Positions 5,680-57,231 are shown, counted from the first letter of the stretch. The stretch: 57,733 bases of DNA from Candidatus Nanohalobium sp. (GCA_042217545.1 JBDGSM010000017.1:4755-62487); one strand, 5' to 3'. Numbers and translations are program-made. The notes: generated from the letters alone by a model not told the origin.

Positions 5680-5685
5680 CTTTTT

Positions 5686-6474: not shown

Positions 6475-6505
6475 AGTTACAGAAGAATTTTCCGGCAGGA
6501 AGGTT

Positions 6506-7345: not shown

Positions 7346-7348
7346 CTT

Positions 7349-8131: not shown

Positions 8132-8133
8132 AA

Positions 8134-27832: not shown

Positions 27833-30800
27833 ATGGGATTAAAGTCCTCGGGAAAAAGAGCGGTAGCAATACTGTTAGTGATTCTCTTAATCGGTACGGT
27901 CGCCGGTCACTCGCTGAAGATTCTTGACACGTCTAACTCTTTCAGGACTTCACAGGGGAAAAGTAACTGGACTGTCAGCTTCAACTCCTCGCAGACAGGA
28001 AAACTGAAAATTGAGATACTTCAGGGCTCCTCGAAGATAGATTTCGATAAACTTCAGTACAAACTCTCAGGCAAATGGAATGACCGGTCATACAACGTAA
28101 GCGGGAACACACTCACCACCAACTGGGATGGCAATCACCCCGAAGGCAGGATTGCCTTCTCAGTCCAGAAATACGGGCGGTACAGGGCAAACATCTCGAT
28201 AGGCGGGAGAGAAGTCTCTGTTGGAAACCCTAGTAAAGCAGAGCAACAGAACTTCGGTTTCGACGTCAGCGATCCTACAAACTCCTTTAATCTCTGCGCT
28301 CTAACCAATAACTTCTGGAAATGCAATCCCGGACCCGAAGAACCCGGAGCATCAGGGAAAGTAGTCAACTTAAACCCTGAAGTCCAGAAAAAGTTCAAAG
28401 TACCCCGAAACTCGAAAATCAACCACTTCTCAATCAAACTCAGCACAGTCGAAGGAAGGCCTGTCCTGAACCTCACCGGACAAGGCACCCTCTTCACAGA
28501 TATCGCCTCGAATAACCTGAAGGAGATCCTCACATACCAGGGACAGAACATAAATGCGTACAACTCATCAGGCAACAAGATCTGGACATACAATGCGAAC
28601 AACACAATTAATAACATCAAAAGTGGGAACGAGATTATCCAGGGCAACAAGAAAGAAGTTCTCGCCGCCACAAAAAACTCAACCCTCATGATAGACCACC
28701 AGGGCAACCTAACCTGGGCTGACAGAGGAAACGAATACTACCACATCGCAGCAGGAGAGCTTTCCTCCGAAAGAAAAACTTACAGGAACGATGACGGAAA
28801 GGCAGAAGGCCTGGCATGCATAGGATGTACGAACGAAACAGTAATCCAGCTCCCGTACAACATAACAACAGGAAACGGCACTTACTACATAAAAACAGCT
28901 TTAAACAAGTACAAGAACTCTGGAGATCTGAAACTGAAGGCAAACGGAACCACATACGATATAGACGAATCCCGAATTGAAGAAAAAGCAGTAAGAGAGT
29001 TCAAGAACGATTCAGGAAAAATAGAGGACATGGCAGAGATCGGACCAGGCAATATAACCTTCCAGGCCTTCAAACCCAATCTGAAGGCGAAGGATTTCTA
29101 CCTGAAACTTCCTCTTGCAAGGGCCTCTTCAACTACCTCAGACCTGAAGCTTGAGATCAGTGGAAGCAAGTACAGCATTCCTTCAGGAGAAGTGAGCAGC
29201 GTGGTCGACCCCAACTTCACTTATTCGACACAGAGCAGTGCAGAGGCCCTGAGAAATATAGGGAACGGCGAGGCAGTTTACAAAACAGGTTTTGATCCGG
29301 GCTCCAACACCTCCATCTATGTTGGAGGACGGTTCAATAGTATAGGAAGCAATGCAGACATCAAGGTCAAGCTCAACGGGACCAGCTACACTATCGATGG
29401 AAGCGACATCTCTGTCAACAACATCAAAGAGTTCAAAGCTGACGACGGAAAAGCAGACGGATCTTCAAGGCTGAAGGCCTCAACTAACTCTACCTTCAAC
29501 CTGCATTACTCGATGCCATCAGATATCAACTCAGAGAAAGTATACGTGAAAGCTGGATTCACGTACAGCGGCGACAAGAGCGGCAACCCATTCGTGAAAG
29601 CAGGCGGCTCAAAGTACTACTTCCCTAAATCACAGATTACCGAAACCAGCGACGTAACGAGATACGTCAATGATAATCAGCGAGACAATTACAGCTGTAT
29701 CGGCTGTAACTCCAGTAATCAACGGGCGCCTGTCTTCGATCTCTCTGCACTGAACGTCTCGACCTTGAAAGCCGAGAACGCCAGGATCAGCGCCCGGATG
29801 TGTAGCGTAGGTAACAGAGTAGACGATCTGAAGCTAAGCGGAGTCGGACTAGGATCCAATGTCTACAATGTCAACGTTTCCAAGATCCATGCCTGTAGCA
29901 AGGGATTCCAGGACGTCAAGATACCTGTTCAGCCAGGAGACCTGGCCGAGGACAACTTTATCTTCAGATGCAGCAACTGTAACAAGACCAGCTACTACAG
30001 GCTGGCATCAGATAACTCGACAGGAGGAAAATACAGCCAGTACCTTGTAGGAGGCGCACCTACAGGAATCTCCAGCGACTACATGATAAACGTCACTACA
30101 GATACCTCGCTCAACTACAGCTGGGCCGAGGCAGCCGTACCGGACACCGCAGTAAACCAGGGCGACAACGTAACGATAGGATGCGACGGCTGCTCCGGTT
30201 CAAGCAGTTACAGGCTGATGACCGATGGAAGCAACTCAGGAAACTCCTACTACTTCAACAACTCGCTCAAAAAAATATCCAGCGACTACATGACAAGAAT
30301 CTGGACCAACACATCCCTCAACTACGACACAGCATACACCAGAGTCAACAGCAGCGACATAGGACCAAATACAAACATTTCATTCAGTTCAACAGGAAAC
30401 TACAACATCCTGGTCGACAAAAACAACTCAGGAAACTCCTACTACGCAGGAAACCCTCTTAACGGAGAGTACAAAACAAGAATAGAGGAAAGGCCTGTAA
30501 ACTACAGTTACACAAAGATAAAAATCAACGAATCCGAACTCAACGCAGACAACGCCACCTTATCCTGCCAGAACTGCGGCAGCTCCTACTATATCGGCCT
30601 CGAGCCATCCTCAGGCCTCAAAATATCAGGAACAGCAGACTTCATAGGGAAAAAGGACTTCGGCGCCGATGCCAGAGTATGGACCAACACAAGCCTGGAA
30701 TACGATACTATAAGGACGCCTGTAAACTGGAAAGATCTTGGAAAAGATGTAAACGTTTCCTACTTCTGCCAGGGATGCAGCGGCAAGGCCTTCAACGTCC

Positions 30801-33800
30801 TAATCGACAATAATTCAAACTCTTCCTCCTGGAAGTACAGCAACGGATACAGAGGCCTTAATGGAGGCCTTATGTCGAGCGTGGAGTTCTACGGCTCGAA
30901 TCCTGGAGATGAGATCGTGGGTTCAAGGCTCTTCCCTTCAGCTATAGTTGCAATGGATAGCTCGGGGAACCAGCTCTGGAACTACAGTACAAGTGAGATG
31001 ACTTACTCCGTGAATATAGGCCCGGTAGTTCCAAACAGTATCGGTAACGAGGTCGTGATCGCGACCAAGAAGAAGATCAGGATCCTGGACTCCTCAGGCA
31101 ACGTCCTGAAGACATATCCCTCGGGAAGCTCCAAATGGTTCCGTGCCACCACACTTGAGGACCTGAACTCGGACTCAAAGGACGAGATAGTTACAGGCAC
31201 GGACTCCGGCCACGTGATTGCCCTGGACCAGAATTTGAGCGTGATCTGGAACCAGGGCGTGGGAAGCAAGGTGAATGGCCTTACATCAGGAAACCTTTCG
31301 AAAAGCCCAGGACCGGAGATCCTTGCAGGCCTCCAGGACAGCTCACTCGTACTTTTCAATTCCTCAGGCCAGCAGATACAGAGCTACTCAAGGCCTGAAG
31401 CAGTAACGAATCTCGAAAGTGGCAACGTGCTTACACGTCCAGGACAGGAGATCGGGGTATCCACCTCTCAGAGCCGGCTTTTCAACTTCTACAATCTTCC
31501 GGAGGACCTCTACCTCAGTTCCGGAGGCAACCAGCTCTGGAACGGCTCAGGCCTTTTCACCGGCACAAAAACAGTCTCGAACTCCTCTATAGTACAGGGG
31601 ATGAACAACCAGCTCTCAGGCTGCGGGACAAAGAGTTGCAACCTCTCCTTCACCCTGGGATCAAGTACAGGAGGAAAAGTCCTTCTCTCAGATCCAGAAC
31701 TCGACTTCACGTACAACCTGTCGGACACCTACGACTATACGACAAACGTGACCAAATGGGCAAAGACATCAGGATTCAGCTCAGACAAGAAACTGATGTA
31801 CAAGGCCTCCCGAATCAAATACACACAGACACCCGCAATACCCATCAGGGTAAACAGAATCTTCCTGCCAGGAGGAGTCGGAACAACAAAAGTCGTCTTC
31901 AACAACAACTCATTCCAGAACAACGCATACTCCCTGGACCTGCCGAGAAGCCTCAGATACTGGAGATTCAACTTCCTGGGAACAAGACCTACCGACTACA
32001 TCTGGTACAACTCCTCGAAAAAGGCCTCACCGATCTCAGTAACCAAAGGCAACCTGACAGGTAGTTCACCAGCTTCAAGGAACGTCACGGTCGCCAGAGC
32101 AACGGAGAAGACCGACGTTACCTTCAGGAACGTCACCGTGAATATACCAGTAAACACTTCAGAAGTAGTAAAAGACGCATTCCTGAAAGCCGACTGGAAC
32201 GGAGACGGAAACTACGTAAACATTACCCCTTCAGAGACAGGATGCAGCAGCTTCAGAAACGTTACAGGAGATACAAGAACCTGGAAAGTCTGCAAAACAG
32301 TGAACGGGAACGGAAAAGTGGACGAATTCCGGATCGTTCAGCCAGAGATCGGAAACAGCTCCAGCACACACAATGAAACAGTTTACAAACTCGCCGGCAT
32401 AACAAACATCGCTCCAACCCTGAACAGGCTGGACGTCTCACCTTCCTCCACCTACTGGGGACAGGACTTCAACTTCACCTCCGACTTCAGCGACGCCGAG
32501 GGTAACAGCCTGAACGCCTCGCTCTGGCTGAAAAAGGATTCAAACTGGACGAAAAAAGCCTCATCTCAGTTCACCGGCTCCCATAATTTCACCCTGACAT
32601 CGGACAGGAACTGGACAGGAGCCGTCGACTACAAGGTAAGCTACTACGACGTCAAGAACGGATCACGGCTTCACGACGCCGTGAACTCCAGCACCGAGTC
32701 GTTCGTGGTCGAGGCCCACGACACGAACGTCAGCTACAGGTACGGCGCAGGCCTCGAGCTTGACAGGACAGGAGAGACAGGCAAACTCGGTGGCGTGGTA
32801 TACGACGAGGATGACGGAGGCAAGCTGAACTCGTACACCAGTGATCTCTACTGCTTCCTCTACATGAACGGTACGGCACAGTCCGTCACAAAGATCAATG
32901 GAACAGGATACTGCAGCTTCAGCCTGGCAGACCTGAAGAGAGACTTAGGCCTCTACAACTGGCATATACAGACCTACAGCAGCAAAGGATACTTCAAGAA
33001 AAGCAACAGCGCAACAAAGAACCTGACCCTTCTCGGCAACTTCACTGTAGACACCAACTTCTCAAAGAGGACTGCTTTCAGAGGTAACGGAACAGTAAAG
33101 TACAGTTACGAAAACATCCAGGACGCACTCGGGAACTCTGTCTCACCGACTTACAACGTGACCTGGGGCTCTGCAAATAACCTGACAGTAGAAGGCACAC
33201 AGCAACTCTCCGGCTCCTCAGTCTCAGGAACATTCACAGGCATCACAGACACAACTCCATTAGGCCTGACACCGATGAAACTAAACCCGAGACAGGAAAA
33301 CTTCAACAACGAGTCCTTCGTGAAGCAGGTAAGAGTGCTGGGCCTTATCACCCCGAACCTCTACCCAAGCAAAAACACGGTATTCCCGAAGAACGACCTG
33401 GTCAACCTCACAGCAAGACTGAGAGACAGGCAAAGCAACCAGATAACACAGGCCTCAGTGGACTTCAACACGCCACCAGGTTTCTGTACAGCGACCTACC
33501 AGAACAGAAATGTCTACAAATGCCAGTACAACCCTGACAACTCCCTCGCAGCAGGAACCTACAACTGGAGCATCGACGCCACAAGACAGAACTACAGATT
33601 GAACGATACGAAAAGCCAGATCAACGTCGGAACCGGTATCAGAGCAGACTCAAACGTCACAACCGGAACCGTTTACAGATATTCAAAGGCCTCAGGCAGC
33701 AACACAGTCTACTACAACGTCACAGACATCAGAGACGACACAGGACAGCTTGACAACGTCTCATGGAAAGCCCTGTGGGAAGGAAGCATAATACAGAGCG

Positions 33801-48800: not shown

Positions 48801-51800
48801 TCAGCTCGTCGGATCTGCTTAGCTTCTGGATCCAGAGCGATATTCCATTCAACATGACTGTTGAGGACGGACCTGACGGTTCAGGAGTATGCAGCTACAG
48901 GGAGAGCTACAACAGCACGGATCTCTGGGAACTCAAACAGTACAACCTCTCGGAGTACAGAGAGCAGTGTGGGGTCGGAGTAGCCCAGATCTCCTGGAAC
49001 TTCCACCACCGAGGGACTGGAAACGTCTCCACGCTGGTAGGCCTCGACCAGGTAAGCAAGCTCACACCCGCAAAGACCAACGTCAACGGGACCAGGAACC
49101 TGGAACTGCTGCCCGGAAAGACAGGTCAGTACGACTTCAAGCTGGGGATCAAACAGTCCGGATTCTACAACCTCTCACAGAGCACGGCTTTCAAGACGAT
49201 CAACATCAACACTGGAAGAGGAAGAAAGAGCGTCGCAGGCAAGAAAATCGGCGGAGAAACCCAGAGAAAGGAAATAGCGCCTACAGGACAGGTCAACACA
49301 ACAGACTTCTGGGTAGAACCCGACTACATCAACGCCACGGTAGCAGCAGAAACCTACGGAACGTTCGGAAAAGCAACGATCTACAACAACAAGACCAAAG
49401 ACCTGTTCCTCCAGCTCTACGAAGGAAACAGAGCAGACCTGCTCGACGTACAGGACAACGTCACCGTAAAGGCCAGCACCCCCAGAACACAGGAACTGCA
49501 CGATGTAGGCCTCGGCTTCAACAGTTCACAGCCCGGAACCTACAACGGAACAGTTACGTTCTTCGATCCAGCAACAAGGAACTACGACACAGTAAACGTA
49601 ACACTCAACGTCAGAAACATTATAATGAATATCGTGAACACCTCTGCGGAACACGGCAGGGACAACATCACTTCAGGAGACACGATAACGGCCTACGCCA
49701 ACGTCACATACAATAATACAAAACAGATCAGCGACGCAGGATGGAAGGCCTCAATACAGGGAGATAAATGCTCGAACGTTAACTCCAAATACATAAACAG
49801 CACAGGCCTCTGGAAGATCAGCTGCAGCGCCCCCGGCATCAAGAAGAATCCGGTAAACGTCAGCTACGAACTCACAGCGCTGAAGGACAACCTGGAGATA
49901 AAGGCGAGGAAAGGCCTGAAGTACAGAGATGTCACACCTCCTTTCGTGGTCTCGAAGACCGGGGACAACGTAAGACAGGGAGAAAACGCCACAGTCCGTC
50001 TTGAGGCAGTCGACAACGTTGGAATAGACAACGTCACCGGTACGGGAATCTATCTCGGGAACAGTACCAAGGTCGGAAACGTCTCTTTCAGCAAGGTCAA
50101 CGGCAGATACGTCGGAAACCTGACACATACAGGCAGTAAAGGAGACTACGATGTGAAGGCCAGACTTGAAGACGTGAACGGCCACACAAGAACGGTAAGA
50201 ATACCTGTATCCGTCTTCCCATTCGTCAACTTCACAGGATCCATGAAGGATATGAAAGCGGACTTCAGATTCCAGAGGCCTTCCTCGAACACCACCCTGA
50301 TAGATGCATCCACGGACGAGAGCTACAACCTGAAGGTCCAGAACAGGAGCTATGACGTCAACATAGATGTACAGCCTGACAGGCCTGAAAAAGTAGGTGA
50401 ACCAGTACACAACATAGAGTTCATAAACACGTCGGTTAAAGGGAACATGACAGATCCTGTGTCTGTGTCGCCTGTGGAGAACGGAAACCCGGTCAACTTC
50501 CAACACCCATCAGGAACGACGAACAACACCTTCACAGGAGTATCCATTAACAGCAGCTTCAACTTCAGCAAGGCAACCATCACCTTGAACTACTCGAACA
50601 ACGAGGACTTTGACGAAGCAGACGAGAACAACCTCCGTGTCTTCAAATGTGAGTACGGAGCCGCAGGAAAATGTAATACCTCGGACTGGAGGCAGCTGAA
50701 CACCACCATCAACATAACAGAGAACACTGTGAAAAGCTCCACCAACAGCACATCATCCTACATCGTTGAGAGGCTTTACACACCTAACAACAACCAGGGC
50801 GGAAACCAGGGACAGCAGAACAAAAACAAGAAGAAAAACAAGAACGGCGGCTTCCCAGGAGGCCTTACAGGAAACGGAAAGAACAGCAACCAGTCCAAAC
50901 AAGATAACAAGTCCGATATCGCCAAAGAACCGTTCATCCTGTCGCCACATATCTTCCAGCCTATCATGTTCCGTGGAGACGAGAGAACATTCCTCCTGAA
51001 GATCGAAAACAACAGGGAAAAGACGATCAACCTGAACATGAGTATTGAAGGCGAGCTCAGGAAACTGCTGGGGCCTAAACACAGCTCCATGAACATCTCA
51101 GCGAACTCCACCGCCGTAACAGAGCTGAGAGCCTCTATCCCTGAGGACGCAAAGATCAAGACATACACCGGGCAGATAATCGCCCAGTACGGAAACGTGA
51201 CAGTTAACAGCTCCCAGTCGATCCTGGTATCAAGGAAAGGTTCCGAAGGCTTCCATCTGAACGTTAAGGCCTTGACCAAGAACGTGGAGCCAGGTTCGAA
51301 CTTCAGCTTCCAGACAAAGATAAACAAGATCACCCTAGAGACTCCGCTCCAGGTAAATATGACGCATTACTTCAGGGAGAGTGATACGGACAAAGTTATA
51401 CTGAAACTGAACAATTCATTCAAAGTAAGCGACAGTAAAACCATTAAGAGAAAGATATCGACCAAAGATATTCCTTCAGGAAGTTACTATGTCCAGACCG
51501 TTGCAAAGGCCGGTAACACGACAGTTGTTGACTCAGCGACTGTTGTTATCAAGGAAAGCTTCTGGACGCCGTTGAAGACCCGGGCCTTGATACTGATAAT
51601 CGCAGTCATCCTGATCAGTGTCCTTGGATGGAAAGGTTACCAGTACTACTGGACGAAGAAGGAGGAAGAAGCACGTTACGTCTTCCCAGTAGATTACAAC
51701 AGACTACCAGATGAAATAGAGGACAATTACTGGGTCGGAAAGATCGCAGAGACAGAGAAAGATGCGTACATCGATCCAAGCGACCTCACAACCCACGCGA

Positions 51801-52750
51801 TCGTATCAGGATCGACAGGATCCGGTAAATCCGTCACCGCAAACGTGATCGCGGAAGAAGCACTTGAAAACGACGTACCGGTAATCGTGTTCGATCCTAC
51901 AGCGCAGTGGACAGGATTCGTAAAGGAACTCAAAGACGATGACCTCGAGGAACACTACGACAGATTTGAAATGGATCCTCAGGAGGATTCAAAGCCTTAC
52001 AGGGGAGTCATCAAGGAGGTAAGCTCGGCAGAACCGGATATCAACTTCGAGGACCTGCAGAACGAGGGAGAGATCACAGTATTCACACTCAACCAATTGA
52101 CAACTGAGCAGTTCGATGAAGCAGTCAGGAATATAATCGACCAGATATTCGACAAGGATTGGGAGGAGAGCCCAGACCTGGAGATGCTTGTAGTCTTTGA
52201 CGAAGTGCACAGACTGCTGGAGGAATACGGTGGAGAAGGAGGTTACGAAGCACTGGAGAGAGGAGCCAGAGAATTCAGAAAATGGGGAATAGGCCTCATG
52301 ATGTGCAGCCAAGTCACAGCAGACTTCAAACAAGCCATCAGCGGAAACATAATGACAGAAATACAAATGCAAACCAAATCCATGGAAGACATAAACAGTG
52401 TAGAGAAAAAATACGGCGAGGAGTTCGCCAAGAGAATCTCCTCGGAAGACGTGGGTACGGGAATGATACAGAACTCGAATTACAATGATGGAGAACCATG
52501 GTTCGTCGACTTCAGGCCTACCTACCACAACCCACACAAAATCCCAGACAGCGAAATGAAAAAATACCACAACCTCTCCGAGAAACTTGACAGTATCAGG
52601 AAAGAGCTGGACAGACGGGAGGAAGAAGGAAAGGACCTGAGAGACAAGGGGCTGGAACTCCAGCTGGCCGAAAACAAACTCAAGGAAGGCAGATTCAAAA
52701 TGGCAAACATGTACATAGACAGCCTCAAAGACGAGATGGATCTAGGATGA
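27833..52750 (+). CDS. Giant (8,305 aa) multi-domain surface adhesin-like protein ending in a TM helix and a cytoplasmic HerA/FtsK-type ATPase domain
   Basis: A single stop-free frame of 24,918 nt. The N-terminal signal peptide is KRAVAILLVILLIGTVAG/HS. Domain grammar is consistent along the whole length; see the domain features and findings. Confidence 0.85.
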   Translation: MGLKSSGKRAVAILLVILLIGTVAGHSLKILDTSNSFRTSQGKSNWTVSFNSSQTGKLKIEILQGSSKIDFDKLQYKLSGKWNDRSYNVSGNTLTTNWDGNHPEGRIAFSVQKYGRYRANISIGGREVSVGNPSKAEQQNFGFDVSDPTNSFNLCALTNNFWKCNPGPEEPGASGKVVNLNPEVQKKFKVPRNSKINHFSIKLSTVEGRPVLNLTGQGTLFTDIASNNLKEILTYQGQNINAYNSSGNKIWTYNANNTINNIKSGNEIIQGNKKEVLAATKNSTLMIDHQGNLTWADRGNEYYHIAAGELSSERKTYRNDDGKAEGLACIGCTNETVIQLPYNITTGNGTYYIKTALNKYKNSGDLKLKANGTTYDIDESRIEEKAVREFKNDSGKIEDMAEIGPGNITFQAFKPNLKAKDFYLKLPLARASSTTSDLKLEISGSKYSIPSGEVSSVVDPNFTYSTQSSAEALRNIGNGEAVYKTGFDPGSNTSIYVGGRFNSIGSNADIKVKLNGTSYTIDGSDISVNNIKEFKADDGKADGSSRLKASTNSTFNLHYSMPSDINSEKVYVKAGFTYSGDKSGNPFVKAGGSKYYFPKSQITETSDVTRYVNDNQRDNYSCIGCNSSNQRAPVFDLSALNVSTLKAENARISARMCSVGNRVDDLKLSGVGLGSNVYNVNVSKIHACSKGFQDVKIPVQPGDLAEDNFIFRCSNCNKTSYYRLASDNSTGGKYSQYLVGGAPTGISSDYMINVTTDTSLNYSWAEAAVPDTAVNQGDNVTIGCDGCSGSSSYRLMTDGSNSGNSYYFNNSLKKISSDYMTRIWTNTSLNYDTAYTRVNSSDIGPNTNISFSSTGNYNILVDKNNSGNSYYAGNPLNGEYKTRIEERPVNYSYTKIKINESELNADNATLSCQNCGSSYYIGLEPSSGLKISGTADFIGKKDFGADARVWTNTSLEYDTIRTPVNWKDLGKDVNVSYFCQGCSGKAFNVLIDNNSNSSSWKYSNGYRGLNGGLMSSVEFYGSNPGDEIVGSRLFPSAIVAMDSSGNQLWNYSTSEMTYSVNIGPVVPNSIGNEVVIATKKKIRILDSSGNVLKTYPSGSSKWFRATTLEDLNSDSKDEIVTGTDSGHVIALDQNLSVIWNQGVGSKVNGLTSGNLSKSPGPEILAGLQDSSLVLFNSSGQQIQSYSRPEAVTNLESGNVLTRPGQEIGVSTSQSRLFNFYNLPEDLYLSSGGNQLWNGSGLFTGTKTVSNSSIVQGMNNQLSGCGTKSCNLSFTLGSSTGGKVLLSDPELDFTYNLSDTYDYTTNVTKWAKTSGFSSDKKLMYKASRIKYTQTPAIPIRVNRIFLPGGVGTTKVVFNNNSFQNNAYSLDLPRSLRYWRFNFLGTRPTDYIWYNSSKKASPISVTKGNLTGSSPASRNVTVARATEKTDVTFRNVTVNIPVNTSEVVKDAFLKADWNGDGNYVNITPSETGCSSFRNVTGDTRTWKVCKTVNGNGKVDEFRIVQPEIGNSSSTHNETVYKLAGITNIAPTLNRLDVSPSSTYWGQDFNFTSDFSDAEGNSLNASLWLKKDSNWTKKASSQFTGSHNFTLTSDRNWTGAVDYKVSYYDVKNGSRLHDAVNSSTESFVVEAHDTNVSYRYGAGLELDRTGETGKLGGVVYDEDDGGKLNSYTSDLYCFLYMNGTAQSVTKINGTGYCSFSLADLKRDLGLYNWHIQTYSSKGYFKKSNSATKNLTLLGNFTVDTNFSKRTAFRGNGTVKYSYENIQDALGNSVSPTYNVTWGSANNLTVEGTQQLSGSSVSGTFTGITDTTPLGLTPMKLNPRQENFNNESFVKQVRVLGLITPNLYPSKNTVFPKNDLVNLTARLRDRQSNQITQASVDFNTPPGFCTATYQNRNVYKCQYNPDNSLAAGTYNWSIDATRQNYRLNDTKSQINVGTGIRADSNVTTGTVYRYSKASGSNTVYYNVTDIRDDTGQLDNVSWKALWEGSIIQSGKTNSTGFNFSYTVPENQNPGSKTAKLKLEKTGYRKYTDTSTVDVDGSINASLETRPNENLTATLRDMKDNPISGSSVTFHTPPGQCLKKYSIGNKYYCEYNADQGLSKGQYRWNISVNDPDYSYQQNKSANISIQSQISANLTLQSGPYYRANSSTSNPTNPSLQIANSNPSSVNYTISLGGKTVASGQVSGGSKYLTFNVPDTASLGTQTVTINLKKNGYEDLTKTFGREIRGTLTADLYQAEDVFRNNSVTRNNYNLTTNLKANITNALGQQVGGLSTSFNIPGGECITSYSNSYNYSCTYDPNILASVGNQTWSVTASAAGYEPVTSNQGSFYLKNVIRPDFLSSGEGYRRDRTKSLKVQALNPSDNSVDASYTSSYYIGPDYLGGNSGTGTVSFSWSPSCTRSVGGYTIDANITSNDPRYEVYQGQDSGNISVRADLNLNISSPLNSSVSGKNYQQGSNVNLATDLATQCGDPVNMSGTDIIWKASDRDTTKIISSGKTASWNIPESFTGETNITAYGDNYYYVGGSDTNKILIERVLNINTTGGFTDKLRTFGGSYDYPFSAEIITGDGKKAYNSSLNENWNKFNISFYVDGNKVKELRTDSQGSVNTTINLGSQYNPGTHTLKAYLENTTAINTTILNDKYTKDIKLTDQASVDMSRPKSGQKSYGQEVNLISSINTATGNENALNIDYNWIFKDNDTQRYISSSKVSSWIIPSYAYGPGNISVVAQNDYLTTATNTTDVTVNRKTNIEKYDPYKYVEPDTVNKLNATIDIPGLQNKSGYKVTFWTGSYSNQHTVKTGPNGTATYKWNTSGLSKGAYNTGVFIKDAPPSYFKAVDPKSVNRTLVIPDKLNISAYYRDNNEENANGNNFPNLPDKVVYRNPGPWKNPDKIFLAANVTTPFANSGDKYDVENATVDFWINGTSDNGQQITEKIGQDNVNLTAFQQGLNDNKDQWWDEYTAHTSWNPRGNLPVGAYNLKINATHPVPGFNPDPIRRPLEIRGVLNITITDPPAWEDTYQMDNLTFSAQVEDMNGNDIPVSSLDQAIWTLQEDGCANSGDAGASGWSAGTFDWSSAIAHGPKTGSLSSWIVMGNTGYYNIGGGELVWLNAEKQYFNVTRNEYRRGFTDCSAVHHQEDGPKGQINSQFEGDREDRVGIQHDMRARTESVVSEPSQTEVATNNRDMLNITARYYEFNTTQGLPNDFEGTYHATCKECTQSKNKNLSQSAYSYRDQDVAQFRFNFSNEKYRKNYTFTIWATSSDSDFGAVDPYATDSREYRVYKSLGSGTGSVNINGKCENGETAVSAPPDCGFDNLPEHYWLNQTADPGINASDKNPASNDTQYNEFRNTSSPAYENNKAWYAAHSHYSSEYAGGCDFDGKEDDKYEEPDVCPDYFSSDNKPQIKSTQVNPPYVKSGNQANVTAKVRDIDGDLQSVDLIDKSTNSKVTSMSTTSGSCTTYCTFTTTITVSSVKTYYVKAQDSANNTATGNNVDARTDDNPVNITNVTVLGQDPRKKNANLDVDMNVSNVDIPGGATPDSIKEANIEGKTPYVLKHGSNWAVLEQTITADPNDETVNVNVTEYPGYQDSATATYNVDNTIPNVTNEQVTPSLVKNGDKVNFTATITDNALDREYIKRTDNGNKVCTNSSFTNTGGDTYKCSINAPYKTGSFTYRFYAMDKADNTNDSETVTLSVDSHPPEITGLSSDKYIRPNQTVTISANVNDVEGHLDSAMLVTMNQFYNDSMNVVCDDQEFQGSCQVSPNKSTDYMIYANDTLGNENLNFSQDYVEVKVDEFKPNVELQNQETNFSGTVNIKARVNDTPPEVANGGFEQGNTGQWKFTQSSTNITNGTGYCTDDNGDGTSYCAFFDGSVYPKTTAQNNITGQKADRIAGKSVEFSGSLWGERNNFGLETDSSKASYKEYGGEDDARFHIKAWDGSNNLIKDKKGVWASHYTSNRTSGEMTNVSNGFKVPSSAKTISVQLDGGDLQGSAANAYDSFFDSIKLGPSNLDTSSVKYAFSNSSGNYTSSGAGFGSLPHDTGNNFSTSVDTTGLEDGYYMLTVKASDAVNNQAIYRKEVKVDNEPPEIDFRENISRKAKITVSDGSNQKKITLRPGIEKYPVSFSGTSGSATLDILMNSSTPLETGLINSLVLKASDGSVIRNISTESQWDQGSYSGLSTDGRTSSALGLGSQNGSSGDSLVGYWRFNRKVSGKGGTIPDSSGNSNKATLLNGSDITGDGIYSTNSVDLNGINQSVRADKSADLNSSSLTFSTWFKMDRNLTCSSNNNWRSFAHKGSSTSGSNRGWDIVLEEGGATAFDVNGTRWWPDSFHDEKVGYPLDEWHHYTYTYKASTGRMAFYKDGKLIDYYYKEPGPIRPAASQLKIGGGTDTGCPSGSGYVPGSYDEVQVYDQALAKSQIQDLYSKTSNAYKGTYTDSFSTSKAVKSIEVNTDNLWNSRVQNTETFNISIFDELLNDDPSTYKYRINGGSYQSIQNLGNSSFSATKDTTGLSNGWNSIEAKASDTEGNTGTKRFRFFVDNQNPSISAISANTSITNGDTVGLSADISDSSLNASSVNFTLINATDQAFEKDPSESCDYTSSKLSCSSAWTPSGLKDGSYNFKVHASDLMGHKASNQDPGESFYLDTKKPNITSSGINDSFVQSSQNLLVWALANDDHNVSTVKAEGYSLSEQPAGNWSSVIPVTDGVVNLTVKDVAGNKKSYGNLNYTIDDKRPQISGLTSNASADFAQGDQVVRFELNASDSHMRSVGLKNRSSGKYVGMVNGSKQTWYLKIRPKQLGLVEQEYNLTARAIDKADNLRKDYYNITIDNSPPRIKKVVLNDTVIRSNTEIAVNATVNDRAPDWVNANGVNLSQNGNLWKGTINVNLSTENPVNVTAEDLAGNFNSNASVGYTIDNTAPTISAFVSNASSGVTRSDAELRFNVSTSDANMRNVTVQGEGLTQGSPWFLKATPGSLGCATGVADQNCTLTAKSTDKADNTQSRDLNITVDDVRPDVGNFTSNVSIIRPGSAVYFTADIDDANVRNVTVRNSTDTVCEMTRVSGTNYSCSTQLYNSSDYFVDALDLAGNVNDTQSVNIETDTTPPRFLSFGSNATYNASRSGANLNFTAVAEDLRLEKVSIGGIKASNLSSTYSLVRTPGELGCPTTGESVCGISFYAEDVPGNSKNRTYNLTVDNIDPDINLVKIDDQIIQSNSTVKATVNVSSETDTDLEYVKAEGQGLTWNGSLWTGNIKVDNDGYVNASTKDKAGNTDLNESVQYIIDDQAPNAYSFNSNTSQDVSRSDKVLNFNLNANDNYQLRDVKIWNKTSGKKLDMTNTGGTRYAVNTTPASLGCPEGVNRKSCDLTVTATDRADNKANTSYTLTTDDIAPDIQDINFNDTDTVVKPNKTLKTNLTLVDDKQSTISELKVENQSISQKSKNSTGGLKSIWEGSITIDNDGFLNITARDQAGNTNTDNSTEYIVDDTSPTIQNLNTNSSNGVIRSDQTLNITVNASDRYNLSSVTVNGLNMHKTGKWIWNRADTAGDLGCTTDGNCELQAKAFDQAGWNSSTRKYLKIDNTNPNVGTLTALNASDGSPDAALGKWNLDWRLFNTTDATNLTVKLYAINGTTGKSTGGNTTVLKQFNQTSYRTVKRPVYFNATNGTYTLVANVTDEAGNRVNTTYRLAITAQPPEIPDAWASNKRPEEDREKATIKANITDTNEIDTTKMTILNTGKTFTNLTLLQPATGNRTGGIYGVDYTPPDNGYYNISVTGIDGTDERRTEEFDRVFKAIGKTSGNLSMNAQRTVFDNITQNYTGRTPVDVNFTNTGLAGSYQTSIQPALVQAGVTTNSTGKNCGRVDNGSSCQATILINVSPQASPGTKRVAEFADWVNPDGTNASISDTLGLTVKKNPVLKLRKDKISKDVWWNQKVNVTNLSAYSFGNYKLKNVTATVSQSYLNNSATNNLLGSYYRFFGEGNNVSKDETGNSSFQVQIPDKGRYIFELKSKASNNQNCGGNQCSDTKVVDLDVFRKTDVNFLTSPGEKYRGSNYLQARVVNGEGNNVNGYTVGFYDNGSLIQNVSMSGGLADFNWNTEQKQLGFHNLTARIWDDESNHFRTIDSTESVGVTLNDSLQISRDINDRDMYWYDNQTDHNVTLNYTVRNRNGYSVENATVSLISNSSDKFKHVGSCRTDPNGKCNITWNTNVSTPVNATIRSKAYKNRYYDNSTTNDSIVEIKGGFSVEIGVPDTGLNWKNDTDLIVGRNQYLKALITDENGTSVTPNNINWTINTSSGYKQIGNSKNLTWTVSGVSTGPHELNVSTETQQGVKTSDTVNVGVYEPVDISVNSVSPGNTERKNSTVQINANVTNTRTGNPLDGYRCKLSDQSEGEFINSTQSLSSGLCTMTWNTEYTDFVGTHNLRIDIPENRTGTWYLPVKNSAETRSVTLTEKLNLSVQKPRGIIHRYTSQDLQAEARNAYNKTSATIEWRHGGSNVQPNGTGKQGDWNTSGLSLGAYRLNTTASKPQYTSDLVRNNLTVYGYSKVNFNESGLYTSGDRINLSFRAEDVNTTTGIADYPVQVYRKYENGSYKAWRNGTTGSSGWYNTTWNTTNDSIGDYKLKADISDNSTLYYNNTNSNVTRSFFVGGTLNLNITGLSKETVYRDQLTEPSETVIEANVTNGGIPVSNAAKVEFDFSGKKIGECLTNSTATTGLCNITWNPGSDRKVGVQNITAQASADNYFNSSKARRQIEIRTGIRPYFRDKKETASFNFSSKQGLNITPQVIETFTGDGVGNYNFNLGYGDRKDDIEVETSKKAWSNDSATLADMNSSLAISGTSTVNVSAEDREIITLNVSKATENFSLGFRRNSSWKQAFKGSFNGTRNLEIPDGKIKALNISTSGNITLESLKLVDTDLANRKELMRRRILGQFGNSRMNFENSKPHNDYSRCMNSGSCVLNGTYVGTEPGFNDSVEGSRTPGVFSGKALLANITNMSANDSVSIRRPYLEYYPGEKNFSSSDLLSFWIQSDIPFNMTVEDGPDGSGVCSYRESYNSTDLWELKQYNLSEYREQCGVGVAQISWNFHHRGTGNVSTLVGLDQVSKLTPAKTNVNGTRNLELLPGKTGQYDFKLGIKQSGFYNLSQSTAFKTININTGRGRKSVAGKKIGGETQRKEIAPTGQVNTTDFWVEPDYINATVAAETYGTFGKATIYNNKTKDLFLQLYEGNRADLLDVQDNVTVKASTPRTQELHDVGLGFNSSQPGTYNGTVTFFDPATRNYDTVNVTLNVRNIIMNIVNTSAEHGRDNITSGDTITAYANVTYNNTKQISDAGWKASIQGDKCSNVNSKYINSTGLWKISCSAPGIKKNPVNVSYELTALKDNLEIKARKGLKYRDVTPPFVVSKTGDNVRQGENATVRLEAVDNVGIDNVTGTGIYLGNSTKVGNVSFSKVNGRYVGNLTHTGSKGDYDVKARLEDVNGHTRTVRIPVSVFPFVNFTGSMKDMKADFRFQRPSSNTTLIDASTDESYNLKVQNRSYDVNIDVQPDRPEKVGEPVHNIEFINTSVKGNMTDPVSVSPVENGNPVNFQHPSGTTNNTFTGVSINSSFNFSKATITLNYSNNEDFDEADENNLRVFKCEYGAAGKCNTSDWRQLNTTINITENTVKSSTNSTSSYIVERLYTPNNNQGGNQGQQNKNKKKNKNGGFPGGLTGNGKNSNQSKQDNKSDIAKEPFILSPHIFQPIMFRGDERTFLLKIENNREKTINLNMSIEGELRKLLGPKHSSMNISANSTAVTELRASIPEDAKIKTYTGQIIAQYGNVTVNSSQSILVSRKGSEGFHLNVKALTKNVEPGSNFSFQTKINKITLETPLQVNMTHYFRESDTDKVILKLNNSFKVSDSKTIKRKISTKDIPSGSYYVQTVAKAGNTTVVDSATVVIKESFWTPLKTRALILIIAVILISVLGWKGYQYYWTKKEEEARYVFPVDYNRLPDEIEDNYWVGKIAETEKDAYIDPSDLTTHAIVSGSTGSGKSVTANVIAEEALENDVPVIVFDPTAQWTGFVKELKDDDLEEHYDRFEMDPQEDSKPYRGVIKEVSSAEPDINFEDLQNEGEITVFTLNQLTTEQFDEAVRNIIDQIFDKDWEESPDLEMLVVFDEVHRLLEEYGGEGGYEALERGAREFRKWGIGLMMCSQVTADFKQAISGNIMTEIQMQTKSMEDINSVEKKYGEEFAKRISSEDVGTGMIQNSNYNDGEPWFVDFRPTYHNPHKIPDSEMKKYHNLSEKLDSIRKELDRREEEGKDLRDKGLELQLAENKLKEGRFKMANMYIDSLKDEMDLG
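30890..31500 (+). other. Beta-propeller-like repeat region (FG-GAP/PQQ-like blades) inside the giant protein
   Basis: Repeated blade-like units: GDEIVGS..VAMDSSGNQLWNY, GNEVVIAT..ILDSSGNVLKTY, KDEIVTGTDSGHVIALDQNLSVIWN and GPEILAG..LVLFNSSGQQIQ. Confidence 0.55.
39262..39825 (+). other. CBM4_9-like carbohydrate-binding (jelly-roll) domain inside the giant protein
   Basis: It starts with the hallmark ANGGFEQGNTGQW, ends with ...FFDSIKLGP, and is about 185 aa long. Confidence 0.5.
40386..41060 (+). other. LamG / concanavalin-A-like lectin domain inside the giant protein
   Basis: LVGYWRFN...IPDSSGNSNKATLLNG...LTFSTWFK...WHHYTYTY...MAFYKDGKL...YDEVQVYDQAL is the Laminin_G_3 pattern. Confidence 0.6.
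41716..44503 (+). repeat. Tandem array of about 85-105-aa Ig-like domains in an alternating A/B di-domain super-repeat (about 5 copies)
   Basis: Domain boundaries carry [VIT]D[ND]xxPx[IV] motifs at nt 41716, 41971, 42265, 42524, 42806, 43075, 43358, 43618, 43927, 44219 and 44503. Confidence 0.7.
51584..51640 (+). other. Single C-terminal transmembrane helix of the giant protein
   Basis: ALILIIAVILISVLGW is followed by the positively charged KGYQYYWTKKEEEAR, consistent with positive-inside topology and a cytoplasmic downstream domain. Confidence 0.7.
51670..52747 (+). other. HerA/FtsK-superfamily (DUF87-like) P-loop ATPase domain of the giant protein
   Basis: Walker A GSTGSGKS (nt 51809-51832), Walker B LVVFDEVH (around 52188-52211) and the REFRKWGIGLMMCSQ segment typical of HerA-like ATPases. 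Confidence 0.7.
52232..52722 (+). repeat. 491-bp perfect direct repeat, copy 1 (3' end of the giant gene)
   Basis: Identical base for base to 54106-54596 (offset 1,874 nt). A further 17 identical nt follow a single C/T mismatch at 52723/54597. Confidence 0.9.
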
Positions 52751-56930: not shown

Positions 56931-57231
56931 ACGCTGCGGCTACCAGTGGTATTCTGAACAGTTTGAAGAGGAAGGTGATGTTCCCAGTCAGTGTCCACGG
57001 TGTTATCAGGAGGCGGTACGTGAGATACCGGAGCCACCTACCAGATTTGATATCTGGAGGGAGGAAACAGCGAAGAAGTGGAACGAGCTGCCCGGAAAGA
57101 TCAAGAAGACAAAGCATAGGGCCGTGGTCTGGAAGGAAAACAACAAACTCCTGATCTCGCTGATCAATACAGGCCTTATCATCACTTTACTGGTTGCCGG
57201 CTTAATTTACCTGCTTTTCGTCCGGGGGTAG
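56902..57231 (+). CDS. Zn-ribbon protein with C-terminal transmembrane anchor
   Basis: CRRCG...CPRC four-Cys ribbon and a C-terminal helix LLISLINTGLIITLLVAGLIYLLF. It overlaps the upstream gene by 29 nt. The start is uncertain. Confidence 0.5.
   Translation: MKEYKNVECRRCGYQWYSEQFEEEGDVPSQCPRCYQEAVREIPEPPTRFDIWREETAKKWNELPGKIKKTKHRAVVWKENNKLLISLINTGLIITLLVAGLIYLLFVRG

Follow-up and report, generated by a model that had tools for sequence, protein, structure and literature searches.

Nanohaloarchaeota possess a described family of giant surface proteins, also called SPEAREs (Hamm 2019, PMC6642349; Reva 2023, PMC10266531). Named members are SVXNc_0300 from Ca. Nanohalococcus occultus (9,409 aa) and BNXNv_0298 from Ca. 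Nanohalovita (8,880 aa), and a further one is NAR1_1133 from Ca. Nanohaloarchaeum antarcticus (5,998 aa), the species in which expression of a homologue has been observed by proteomics (PMC6642349). These giants combine a Sec signal peptide, an Ig-like domain, a PQQ-like β-propeller, a long Ig-like array, and LamG with one transmembrane (TM) helix near the C-terminus, a conserved cytoplasmic ATPase, and a coiled-coil tail, and a second ATPase gene follows immediately 3′; the protein described below resembles them in all these respects. The presence of at least one LamG plus multiple adhesion domains is a SPEARE criterion of Hamm 2019 (PMC6642349), and the paralogous downstream ATPase gene is a feature given by Reva 2023, who disputed the protease and endonuclease features of the family (PMC10266531).

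On the cytoplasmic side, the best sequence and structural matches of the giant's ATPase are HerA proteins (HerA-NurA, PDB 4d2i and 9x1m; the SIR2-HerA and DUF4297-HerA defence systems), with which it shares the RecA-like core, the Walker A and B motifs, and the Arg and Gln residues. ATPases of the HerA/FtsK superfamily work as hexameric rings. VirB4/VirD4 (TraG, TrwB) and CedB/CedD belong to the same superfamily and give weak profile matches; VirD4 and CedB have N-terminal TM segments, and thus membrane association in common with our ATPase, and a presumed role at the cell-cell interface is a further likeness. On the extracellular side, RTX adhesins (MpIBP, LapA), SiiE, Bap-type adhesins, and the halomucin of Haloquadratum walsbyi are surface-located proteins with Ig-like extender arrays and lectin-type modules, and they work, as the giant may do, by reaching out to bind a partner surface. 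These proteins are secreted by T1SS or Sec and retained non-covalently or at the outer membrane, and their repeats are often near-identical in DNA, unlike those of the present gene. None of them, halomucin included, is known to be fused to a cytoplasmic ATPase.

Here, we analyze a 57,733-nt stretch of DNA from Candidatus Nanohalobium sp. (hereafter the window) that encodes a giant protein of 8,305 residues. The protein is a member of the described SPEARE/giant surface protein family rather than a new kind of protein. New here are the C-terminal copy of the downstream gene, gene conversion apparent in five genomes, the divergence of the ectodomains, and a corresponding gene pair in a Woesearchaeote.

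Architecture of the giant protein

A preliminary description of the window had reported a stop-free frame, whose coordinates, plus strand, and 8,305-aa length are exact; it contains zero internal stops and covers 43% of the window. The product, a type-I membrane protein, begins with a Sec-type signal peptide, which is followed by a ~7,900-aa all-β ectodomain. Hydropathy analysis of the full sequence finds hydrophobic segments at two places only, aa 5-32 and 7909-7938. On the outer side there are 372 N-glycosylation sequons and 78 Cys, on the cytoplasmic side one of each, and the pI is 5.8 for the ectodomain versus 4.44 for the acidic, 365-aa cytoplasmic part. This asymmetry and the two hydrophobic segments strongly support the earlier reading of a surface protein, and it is a candidate membrane glycoprotein. 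Its features are the following.

27833..52750, +, giant gene (ATG start, 8,305 aa, one terminal stop, calculated mass 910 kDa)
27833..27910, +, Sec-type signal peptide (K/R n-region and hydrophobic core aa 5-32, from sequence reading)
27917..28225, +, N-terminal Ig-like β-sandwich (aa ~29-131; AF2 head model, strands 5-107, pLDDT 80-90)
28466..28786, +, N-terminal part of the β-propeller, ~2 blades (aa ~212-318; blade HMM, AF2 strand pattern)
28802..29752, +, repeat family R1, ~145-aa units starting DDG.AE..CIGC, inside the propeller
29918..30886, +, repeat family R2, CxxC-bearing units ending ...TNTSLNY (self-BLAST, 32-38% identity)
30875..31504, +, C-terminal five blades of the β-propeller (aa 1015-1224; Pfam, Foldseek, blade HMM)
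33083..34906, +, three ~200-aa double-Ig units with a TPPGxC...YxCxY[ND] motif (self-BLAST, motif search)
39275..39817, +, possible jelly-roll/CBM-like module, starting ANGGFEQGNTGQW and ending FFDSIKL (motif resemblance only)
40544..41050, +, LamG/concanavalin-A-like lectin domain (aa 4238-4406; Pfam Laminin_G_3)
41624..44575, +, A/B Ig-like super-repeat, Big_13-type (~5 copies, ~185-aa period; self-BLAST E to 1e-24)
45818..47932, +, Ig-like units with a G.C.ITWN motif (Big_1, MG2, and Big_7 matches all sub-threshold)
50786..50923, +, N/Q/K-rich low-complexity linker (aa 7652-7697; sequence reading, tandem repeat at nt 50817-50845)
50933..51550, +, two membrane-proximal β-sandwich (Ig-like) domains (aa 7701-7906; AF2 model, pLDDT ~90)
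51557..51670, +, single TM helix (hydropathy peak aa 7909-7938; AF2 helix, module residues 224-257)
51728..52534, +, cytoplasmic HerA/FtsK-superfamily P-loop ATPase (Pfam, PDB sequence matches, Foldseek)
52547..52735, +, C-terminal three-helix (coiled-coil-like) tail ending ...KLKEGRFKMANMYIDSLKDEM (AF2 helices, module residues 550-612)

The signal peptide is likely cleaved between VAG and HS. Modelling predicts that the conserved head, at the distal tip, consists of an Ig-like domain and a β-propeller interrupted by two repeat families. After the Ig-like domain comes a Cys-containing stretch of low confidence (C.F..FW.C.P...EPG..GE), which is conserved in the consensus of the homologue alignment. 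The five C-terminal blades match Beta-prop_CGLA at 28.1 bits (cut-off 26.8) and PQQ_2 at 23 bits, and the Foldseek matches of the AF2 head model are propellers. An HMM built from these blades (aa 1015-1224) and searched over all 8,305 aa matched aa 231-254 (iE 7e-5) and, weakly, aa 263-277, the only other match being a marginal fragment just past the last blade (aa 1228-1237). The propeller therefore appears to be split by the repeat families, with two more blade-like units at aa ~231-277. In R1, which is kept in the head homologues, aa 324-450 pair with aa 470-598 at 28% identity in self-BLAST, and R2 carries CxxC at aa 713, 784, 912, and 979.

Behind the head, the length of the ectodomain would accommodate roughly 60-75 Ig-like modules, in an array interrupted by a variable lectin cassette that comprises LamG and perhaps the CBM-like module. 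The LamG domain is well supported (Laminin_G_3, E=2.1e-18, 67.4 bits, cut-off 27.6), and the A/B super-repeat (aa 4598-5581) matches Big_13 at 58.8 bits in 4 stretches.

Most domain assignments of the preliminary description were borne out. Its signal peptide coincides with one of the two hydrophobic segments. The two families of short repeats are recovered by self-BLAST (aa 324-607 and 696-1018, 27-38% identity), the blades placed at 30.9-31.5 kb by the above-threshold Beta-prop_CGLA score and Foldseek, and the A/B super-repeat by self-BLAST and Big_13. The runs of Ig-like domains and the lectin content, LamG included, stand up to profile and structure tests; the linker is present; hydropathy and AF2 agree on the single TM helix; and the cytoplasmic P-loop ATPase has both its Walker A motif and a DUF87/HerA match. 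Other labels fared less well. The TPPGxC motif occurs in exactly three copies (nt 33470, 34043, and 34652), as stated for 33.4, 34.0, and 34.6 kb, whereas the units at 45.9-48.0 kb, to which it had also been ascribed, carry G.C.ITWN instead. Both sets of units are Ig-like, but the Big_1 label (PF02369) falls at 15.1 bits for those at 33083..34906 and 21.8 bits elsewhere, versus a cut-off of 34.9. The CBM4_9 label (PF02018) is likewise unconfirmed (E=0.5, 11.2 bits vs 25.9, covering 27 profile positions of the N-terminal motif only); for this module, a PDB sequence search gave no match at E ≤ 10 and a homologue search found none. The two domains called CARDB-like are indeed two β-sandwiches in the AF2 model, but have no Pfam CARDB match, and their best PDB matches in Foldseek are WxLIP, RbmA, and transglutaminase C-terminal domains, i.e., a generic Ig-like fold.

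Its Walker motifs, DUF87 match, and HerA-like fold place the ATPase in the HerA/FtsK superfamily. Walker A is GSTGSGKS (aa 7993-8000, nt 51809-51832) and Walker B is LVVFDE (aa 8119-8124, nt 52187-52204). Neither the residues of these two motifs nor the conserved Arg and Gln vary among 57 homologues. The Pfam scores are 52.8 bits for DUF87, which is above the cut-off, and 32 bits for HerA_C; the PDB sequence matches are HerA 4d2i and 8xau, and the top ATPase matches in Foldseek HerA 4d2i, 8woc, and 9x1m. Far from being an appendage, the ATPase makes up the system's conserved core, a point that had been overlooked.

The operon and the short ATPase paralogue

Also overlooked was the place of the giant gene at the head of a conserved operon, in which it is followed by genes for a 625-aa ATPase paralogue, an acidic coiled-coil protein, and a Zn-ribbon membrane protein.

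52747..54624, +, short paralogue, 625 aa (signal peptide, two β-sandwich domains, TM helix, same ATPase, helical tail)
52232..52722, +, 491-nt tract in the giant gene, 100% identical to nt 54106-54596 of the paralogue (nucleotide comparison)
54660..56930, +, highly acidic cytoplasmic coiled-coil protein, 756 aa, pI 4.25 (no TM segment)
56902..57231, +, Zn-ribbon membrane protein, 109 aa (N-terminal CxxC...CxxC zinc ribbon, C-terminal TM helix)

The start codon of the paralogue overlaps the stop codon of the giant gene (ATGA), which suggests translational coupling. The C-terminal 616 aa of the giant are a full-length copy of the architecture of this downstream gene, and homology to the stand-alone ~625-aa family starts at the linker junction. 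The module as a whole, i.e., two β-sandwiches, TM helix, HerA/FtsK-type ATPase, and helical tail, is widespread in DPANN archaea, and the three-helix tail is kept from Nanohaloarchaeota to Woesearchaeota. The resemblance of the two window proteins is confined to one side of the membrane, their cytoplasmic parts being 88% identical and their ecto parts 17%. The same pattern is seen within each of five genomes, where the ATPase domains of giant and paralogue are 79-90% identical, versus 55% between phyla, and the membrane-proximal ectodomains only 17-30%.

We read the 491-nt tract as a probable product of gene conversion. From nt 51660 up to its start, the ATPase-coding regions of the two genes are only 76% identical, and the four other genomes examined contain identical tracts of 80-152 nt between giant and paralogue. 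Nucleotide comparison thus suggests that the two ATPase domains are held alike by gene conversion in five genomes. The 491-nt tract could in principle be an artefact of assembly consensus, but this is disfavored because shorter identical tracts are present in two closed genomes.

The operon is conserved in SG9, the DAL-WCL MAG, and SVXNc. The acidic coiled-coil protein, which resembles SMC and Rad50 only in the manner of coiled coils, is kept downstream in SG9 (55% identity), the DAL MAG, and SVXNc. The Zn-ribbon protein (Zn_ribbon_PF0610, 22 bits, below the cut-off) shares 77% identity with its SG9 counterpart and 70% with that of the DAL MAG, and SVXNc encodes one of 108 aa. A paralogous ATPase gene likewise lies directly downstream of the giant at four other loci, including one from a Woesearchaeote, where the giant reaches 15,808 aa.

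Comparison with SPEARE giants and HerA

The architecture of the window protein agrees with the published descriptions of the giants (PMC6642349, PMC10266531). Its ectodomain has Laminin_G_3 (67 bits), Big_13 (58.8 bits), and internal Ig-like repeats, and the remaining family features were also found: an ORF of several thousand residues, the topology of a signal peptide and one TM helix, the ATPase homology, and the paralogous ATPase directly 3′. Neither a serine protease domain (the 'SP' of the acronym) nor a restriction endonuclease (the 'RE') is among them, since tile-wise Pfam scans of all 8,305 aa gave no protease family and no nuclease domain, with ResIII matching the ATPase core only. 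We do not consider the missing protease disqualifying, because Reva 2023 also disputes this feature.

The SG9 giant (CP012986.1) is collinear and 60% identical over the 3,930 aa compared (aa 4400-8304 of the window protein), and its frame is open and homologous back to about aa 4366. Full-length collinear homologues are P0123 (7,852 aa) and P0125 (7,878 aa), in which the ectodomain is 28-36% identical versus ~60% for the C-terminal module. This module is 68% identical in SVXNc_0300; for the cytoplasmic domain, identity to its counterparts in the giants of SG9, DAL, and SVXNc amounts to 81-90%. The window protein also differs from the other giants. Its best head homologue is only 39% identical; its ectodomain, with a pI of 5.8, is non-acidic and stands apart in this from all others of the family set examined (4.05-4.4); the CBM-like-LamG cassette is absent at the equivalent position in P0123, where 135 unaligned residues face 681 in the window protein; PAC2 lies upstream of the giant instead of downstream of the operon as in SVXNc; and the 491-nt perfect tract is shared with the paralogue.

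HerA proper was considered for the ATPase and rejected: the scores are 32.5 bits for HerA_Thermprot (cut-off 800) and 19.8 for helicase_HerA (cut-off 970), and the neighbours are the paralogue, the coiled-coil protein, and the Zn-ribbon protein, not NurA. Unlike HerA, the ATPase of the window is membrane-anchored through an N-terminal TM helix with an extracellular extension, lacks, as far as our tests go, a HAS-barrel-type N-terminal domain, and is encoded in an operon without NurA, Sir2, or another nuclease partner. Scores so far under the HerA family cut-offs argue that it represents a distinct family within the HerA/FtsK superfamily.

Proposed mode of action and alternatives

Our preferred reading, which we hold to be likely, is that the giant, the SPEARE-type surface protein of a nanohaloarchaeon, would tether the cell to its host and be coupled to a motor in the form of a mixed hexamer. 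Since ATPases of its superfamily are hexameric, we propose a single ring at the symbiont membrane that is built jointly from the giant and the short paralogue, the former contributing few subunits and the latter most. Such a mixed ring would account for ATPase domains that are near-identical and ectodomains that are free to diverge. The ectodomain would reach outward, at full extension possibly as far as ~300 nm, and bind glycans or proteins of the haloarchaeal host envelope. We thus infer the host-adhesin role that the preliminary description had suggested and that has been proposed, likewise by inference, for the homologues (PMC6642349, PMC10266531). At the contact site, ATP hydrolysis would drive some event through the joint action of the ring, the acidic coiled-coil protein, and the Zn-ribbon membrane protein; this may be the movement of DNA or protein, or a mechanical pull. 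Alternatively, gene conversion could reflect a shared cytoplasmic partner, without co-assembly. With one TM helix per subunit, moreover, a ring has only six helices, a poor basis for a wide channel. A wider reading, which we put forward as a rather unlikely one, makes the giant a subunit of a mixed hexameric HerA-type motor, DPANN-wide, that translocates a polymer (e.g., DNA) or pulls the host at the contact, with recurrent gene conversion keeping the ATPase domains interchangeable. This motor reading would extend from Nanohaloarchaeota to Woesearchaeota, the largest giant having 15,808 aa, and, if true, the mixed motor would represent a class of apparatus for transport between archaeal cells that has not been characterised before.

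Transport has been invoked before in the form of a type IV secretion-like 'straw', in which the giant and the downstream ATPase would be VirB4/TraG-type secretion ATPases injecting effectors into the host through the giant (Reva et al. 2023, PMC10266531). The giant's ATPase does belong to the superfamily of VirB4, VirD4, and TraG, it matches T4SS-DNA_transf at 22.6 bits, just over the cut-off of 20.1, and TrwB_AAD_bind at 19.8 bits, weak NCBIfam matches to TraC, TraD, and VirB4-like families exist, and cryo-ET has revealed cytoplasmic bridges in a related consortium (PMC11001535). Yet HerA is the best match by both sequence and fold, with no VirB4, VirD4, or TrwB structure among the top 50, and the NCBIfam T4SS matches all lie at 20-26 bits versus cut-offs of 325-590 (TraC 26 vs 567; VirB4-like 22 vs 325). 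The VirB4 N-terminal domain PF03135 (CagE_TrbE_VirB), reported for SVXNc_0299, was not found at E ≤ 1e-3 in the orthologous 625-aa paralogue or in the C-terminal tile of the giant; no T4SS component (channel, pilin, coupling protein) is present among the operon partners or upstream genes; and Ig-like domains strung together form a rod instead of a conduit. These findings render the straw improbable. About equally doubtful is a motor for import or export of DNA or another polymer, likened to the archaeal Ced system or conjugative coupling proteins, in which a mixed HerA-type ring would translocate nucleic acid over the symbiont membrane at a host contact supplied by the giant ectodomain. The best NCBIfam match is the DNA-translocating ATPase CedD (45 bits), the short paralogue weakly matches CedB, and the nearest structures are HerA DNA translocases. 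In addition, Nanohaloarchaea are not known to possess nucleotide biosynthesis and must import precursors. DNA uptake has also been suggested by Hamm 2019 (PMC6642349). Against this motor, the CedD/CedB scores are far under the family cut-offs (45 bits vs 600) and signify superfamily-level relatedness only, the operon lacks a CedA-like multi-TM channel protein, the analysis identified no DNA-binding domain, and substrate specificity is not deducible from sequence.

The remaining alternatives are less probable still. That the giant is an S-layer-like envelope protein or protective coat of the nanohaloarchaeon itself would suit its membrane anchor, its very large ectodomain with 372 sequons, and the adjacent gene for a second large surface protein (23817-27728). 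We judge it very unlikely, because sequence change is far more rapid in the ectodomain than on the cytoplasmic side (28-36% identity vs ~60% for the C-terminal module) and the lectin cassette is variable, as fits host-recognition proteins, and because an ATPase fusion with a paralogue pair has no known parallel in S-layer proteins. Even less credence can be given to the original SPEARE model of an invasion protein with an S-layer-degrading serine protease, adhesion domains, and a cytoplasmic endonuclease for imported DNA (Hamm et al. 2019, PMC6642349). Adhesion-type domains are present and ResIII matches the cytoplasmic domain at 31.8 bits, but this match is limited to the P-loop ATPase core, which DUF87/HerA fits better; with neither protease nor nuclease families in the tile-wise Pfam search, the profile scans appear largely to refute the model for the window protein, and Reva et al. 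concluded likewise for other members (PMC10266531). A false giant ORF created by chimeric or collapsed repeats is hardly conceivable, even though the window probably derives from a metagenome contig, repeated domains are many, and a 491-nt exact repeat lies at the 3′ end of the gene. The internal repeats are only 25-42% identical in protein, direct DNA repeats in the ORF are 31-52 nt long at 65-77% identity, the only tandem DNA repeat (29 nt, 2.4 copies) lies in the linker, and each copy of the 491-nt tract sits in an intact, distinct context. Collapse, which the preliminary description had named as grounds for refutation, has thus left no sign, and uninterrupted giant homologues occur in the independent closed genomes SG9 and SVXNc, besides the full-length collinear ones.

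The gene also looks native, as had been argued from its AGGCCT density. This hexamer is enriched roughly 15-18x over expectation both inside the ORF (3.2/kb) and in the flanks (4.1/kb), codon usage (RSCU) of the gene and that of its flank genes are correlated (r=0.83), and synteny of the operon extends to three other nanohaloarchaeal genomes. The nearest genomes, SG9 (1.12 Mb) and a 'Ca. Nanohalobium sp.' MAG, are nanohaloarchaeal, in line with the earlier proposal of a halophilic archaeon with a small genome. Upstream, the window encodes PAC2, eIF2-alpha, and a surface protein.

Identity and family of the giant gene

The uninterrupted reading frame reported in the preliminary description proved to be intact, since the ORF list and the translation agree on an ATG start and on a sole, terminal stop:

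27833-52750 (+): giant gene; product 8,305 aa, calculated mass 910 kDa

By eye, a TTTAAATA box can be discerned ~55 nt 5' of the ATG; a sigma-70 promoter/terminator scan of the upstream spacer is uninformative for an archaeon. An assembly artefact caused by repeat collapse was rejected on two grounds. The internal repeats are diverged, with direct DNA repeats of 31-52 nt at 65-77% identity, protein-level repeats at 25-42% identity, and a single tandem array (29 nt, 2.4 copies, in the linker) detected by Tandem Repeats Finder. Moreover, uninterrupted giant homologues are carried by the closed genomes of Nanohaloarchaea archaeon SG9 (CP012986.1) and Ca. Nanohalococcus occultus SVXNc (CP104395.1).

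Proteins of this kind have been described before. Hamm et al. 2019 (PMC6642349) named them SPEARE proteins, of up to 8,553 aa and with expression documented by proteomics, and reported that they carry adhesion domains, one or more LamG domains, a TM helix in the C-terminal part, and a cytoplasmic domain that is conserved. Reva et al. 2023 (PMC10266531) re-analysed giants of 9,409 and 8,880 aa, rejected the protease and endonuclease assignments, and arrived at a layout in which a signal peptide and an Ig domain precede PQQ-like propellers, an array of ~75 Ig domains, and a TM helix, with a VirB4/TraG-like ATPase and a coiled coil at the end of the giant and a second ATPase gene downstream. Judged by its sequence, the window giant is a divergent full-length member of this SPEARE/giant surface protein family, with all of its structural features. 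As in the members re-analysed by Reva et al., tile-wise Pfam searches detected neither a protease nor a nuclease domain, and the toxin domains that the original SPEARE model also includes were not found either. The giant itself, its interpretation as an adhesin, and the downstream ATPase are all already published in kind, and the preliminary finding is largely a rediscovery.

The C-terminal 616 aa, used as the query of a genome scan, retrieved SG9 and a MAG labelled 'Ca. Nanohalobium sp.' as relatives. The assembly index yielded no exact match to the downstream protein. The SG9 giant is collinear with aa 4400-8304 at 60% identity, and homology in an unbroken frame extends upstream as far as the LamG end (~aa 4366), the limit of the SG9 locus compared. 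For the N-terminal head, a k-mer-prefiltered protein search returned one weak match, and for the CBM-like and LamG cassette (nt ~39.3-41.1 kb) none. Reading the head as an orphan is a search artefact: when aa 1-1200 were searched exhaustively with HMMER, 368 relatives emerged. E was below 1e-30 for 19, and these include complete giants (7,852 and 7,878 aa) whose collinearity with the window protein runs from the signal peptide through to the C-terminal tail.

Ectodomain modules and membrane topology

Pfam searches with 3,000-aa tiles missed both the LamG domain and the propeller, which were recovered with domain-sized tiles; long N/S/T-rich tiles therefore lose sensitivity. The LamG domain of the preliminary description corresponds to Laminin_G_3 (E=2e-18, aa 4238-4406), and its beta-propeller-like blades, at aa ~1015-1224, match Beta-prop_CGLA slightly above and PQQ_2 slightly below the cut-off. 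The AlphaFold2 model of aa 25-1224 (16 homologues, mean pLDDT 78.6) is all-beta, and its best PDB matches are beta-propellers. An HMM built from the blades at aa 1015-1224 detected additional blade-like units at aa 231-277 and elsewhere in the giant only a marginal fragment (aa 1228-1237), which suggests that a ~700-aa insertion, holding both families of short repeats, interrupts the propeller. These two families were themselves recovered by internal protein repeat comparison. The A/B super-repeat scores 58.8 bits with Big_13, and the N/Q/K-rich linker, TM helix, and P-loop ATPase are likewise confirmed by sequence, Pfam, and the AlphaFold2 model. Three TPPGxC...YxCxY[ND] motifs are present as described, at nt 33470, 34043, and 34652; the units of 45.9-48.0 kb, to which the same motif had been ascribed, bear another.

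Three domain labels were not confirmed. CBM4_9 reaches only E=0.5 in Pfam, Big_1 stays at or below 21.8 bits where the cut-off is 34.9, and the CARDB-like domains have no Pfam match and are modelled as two generic beta-sandwiches. PDB sequence searches gave no match for the N-terminal 4,500 aa or for the CBM-like tile. The cassette is absent at the corresponding position in the 7,852-aa homologue, and in a further homologue (P0130) the sole LamG-region match sits at a different position, making shuffling of the cassette likely.

The giant has only two hydrophobic segments, aa 5-32 and aa 7909-7938, and its composition changes sharply across the second:

N-x-S/T sequons: 372 (4.7 per 100 aa) between the segments (ectodomain), 1 after the second
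Cys: 78 between the segments, 1 after the second
pI: 5.8 in the ectodomain, 4.44 in the 365-aa part after the second segment (cytoplasmic)

These contrasts mark the giant as a type-I membrane protein whose ectodomain is presumably glycosylated and contains disulfides, and whose cytoplasmic domain is of the acidic 'salt-in' type. The ectodomain (27833-51556; D+E 10.3%, K+R 9.5%) is atypically non-acidic both for a halophile and for the family, as all seven homologous ectodomains compared, including that of the 60%-identical SG9 protein, have a pI of 4.05-4.4. The cytoplasmic proteins encoded in the window are acidic. A difference in salinity, or glycans that contribute the charge, may account for the non-acidic ectodomain.

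The gene next to the giant, in divergent orientation, encodes another type-I surface protein:

23817-27728 (-): 1,303 aa, basic (pI 8.3), with 29 Cys and 60 sequons; hydrophobic segment at the N-terminus, TM helix at aa 1165-1194, acidic tail in the cytoplasm

It contains about six Cys-flanked repeats (...C..F.CE....QASM..GY..AY..TGN.T) and has no significant match in Pfam or NCBIfam.

The ATPase pair and its proposed role

Directly after the N/Q/K linker begins a 616-aa module that is homologous over its full length to stand-alone proteins of ~625 aa in Nanohaloarchaeota, Aenigmarchaeota, and Woesearchaeota. One of these is encoded next to the giant, its start overlapping the giant's stop (ATGA):

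52747-54624 (+): short paralogue, 625 aa

Further 3' are genes for a very acidic 756-aa coiled-coil protein and for a Zn-ribbon protein of 109 aa whose TM helix is C-terminal, both of which are kept in SG9, the DAL-WCL MAG, and SVXNc. In a Woesearchaeote locus (JAIPIC010000001.1, 52802-74901), a called gene of 15,808 aa ends in the same TM-ATPase module; a 699-aa paralogue comes next and, slightly further on, another gene of >4,143 aa. The 15,808-aa product would be among the largest archaeal proteins. The PAC2 gene lies upstream of the giant in the window (22860-23624), and in Ca. Nanohalococcus occultus a 254-aa PAC2 gene lies directly downstream of the four-gene operon. This placement on opposite sides indicates local rearrangement and weakens the functional link between PAC2 and the giant proposed by Reva et al.

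Pfam places the giant ATPase closest to DUF87/HerA (52.8 bits), together with HerA_C and weaker ResIII, FtsK, T4SS-DNA_transf, and TrwB matches on the same P-loop core, and PDB sequence searches returned HerA-type proteins only. In the AlphaFold2 model of the last 616 aa (57 homologues, mean pLDDT 89.8), a pair of beta-sandwiches is followed by a long TM helix, which leads into a RecA-like core with a three-helix tail. For its ATPase part, the top Foldseek matches are the HerA hexameric translocases 4d2i, 8woc, and 9x1m, with no VirB4, VirD4, or TrwB entry within the top 50. The 57 homologues show no variation in the Walker A, Walker B, Arg, and Gln residues. In NCBIfam, the DNA-translocating ATPase CedD ranks best, followed by HerA, TraC, and TraD, all far below the curated cut-offs (e.g. 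45 vs 600 bits). A role in defence, as a HerA of the Sir2-HerA type, was rejected, because PADLOC gave only superfamily-level HerA matches of ~56 bits and no effector partner. Because of these results, we file the ATPase as a distinct family in the HerA/FtsK superfamily, nearer HerA than VirB4.

Comparison across genomes provides evidence that the conserved unit is the pair of giant and short paralogue and that their ATPase domains evolve in concert.

Protein identities between and within the two types
Membrane-proximal ectodomains, giant vs short, within one genome: 17-30%
Giant-type ectodomain modules, across four nanohaloarchaea: 48-70%
Short-type ectodomain modules, across four nanohaloarchaea: 38-60%
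Cytoplasmic domains, giant vs short, within one genome: 79-90%
Cytoplasmic domains, Woesearchaeote pair: 90%
Cytoplasmic domains, Woesearchaeote vs nanohaloarchaea: ~55%

Longest identical DNA tracts between giant and short genes
Window: 491 nt, 52232-52722 = 54106-54596, direct repeat; ~76% identity upstream of the tract
SVXNc: 152 nt
Woesearchaeote: 106 nt
DAL-WCL MAG: 97 nt
SG9: 80 nt

Perfectly identical tracts on a background of ~70-76% identity in all five genomes indicate recurrent gene conversion, confined to the ATPase domain of the pair. We found no mention of such conversion in the publications consulted, and we consider the concerted evolution and the DPANN-wide spread the parts worth pursuing.

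Beyond the observed architecture, topology, homology, operon, and concerted evolution, we propose that the distal head, together with the lectin cassette, binds components of the host envelope, with the Ig-like array serving as an extender. Hexameric rings are the usual assembly in the HerA/FtsK superfamily. The giant and the short paralogue may co-assemble in one such ring, in which case their ATPase domains would have to remain interchangeable; the concerted evolution points to a mixed-ring motor of this kind. The ring would work together with the coiled-coil and Zn-ribbon proteins.

Sequence data do not discriminate between a DNA-translocase, a protein-secretion, and a mechanical reading of the ring. 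As the specific mechanism, a T4SS 'straw' would agree with the published VirB4/TraG-like assignment and seems unlikely for an ATPase placed nearer HerA. A DNA motor would suit the CedD and HerA matches and, with scores so far below the cut-offs, is similarly improbable. The preliminary interpretation of an adhesin for attachment to a host cell envelope is supported by our results. Giant surface proteins make up 2-4% of the ~1-Mb nanohaloarchaeal genomes and are leading candidates for a putative role in host recognition and exploitation by these obligate symbionts of haloarchaea.

Base composition and AGGCCT

The density of AGGCCT had been taken to argue for a native gene, and it is indeed similar in the giant ORF (3.2/kb) and its flanks (4.1/kb), each roughly 15-18 times expectation. 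As codon usage (RSCU, r=0.83 against 23 flank genes) and GC content (50.3% in the ORF, 48.4% in the flanks) are also similar and the operon is syntenic in relatives, we regard the gene as native. Its flanking genes are archaeal (eIF2-alpha, PAC2, primase, XPB-type helicase).

AGGCCT is the most over-represented hexamer of the window (1-57733), with 214 copies against ~13 expected (16.5-fold). It occurs in all three codon frames inside the giant ORF, and the SG9 and DAL-WCL loci show an excess of ~17-21-fold too. Palindromes are seldom so strongly enriched, since genomes tend to avoid restriction sites; a literature search gave no explanation for the excess. One region of the window has a lower GC content (~45-46%) and encodes basic membrane proteins:

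4873-9117 (-): four permease genes of the ABC-2 family (PF06182), clustered with an ABC ATPase gene
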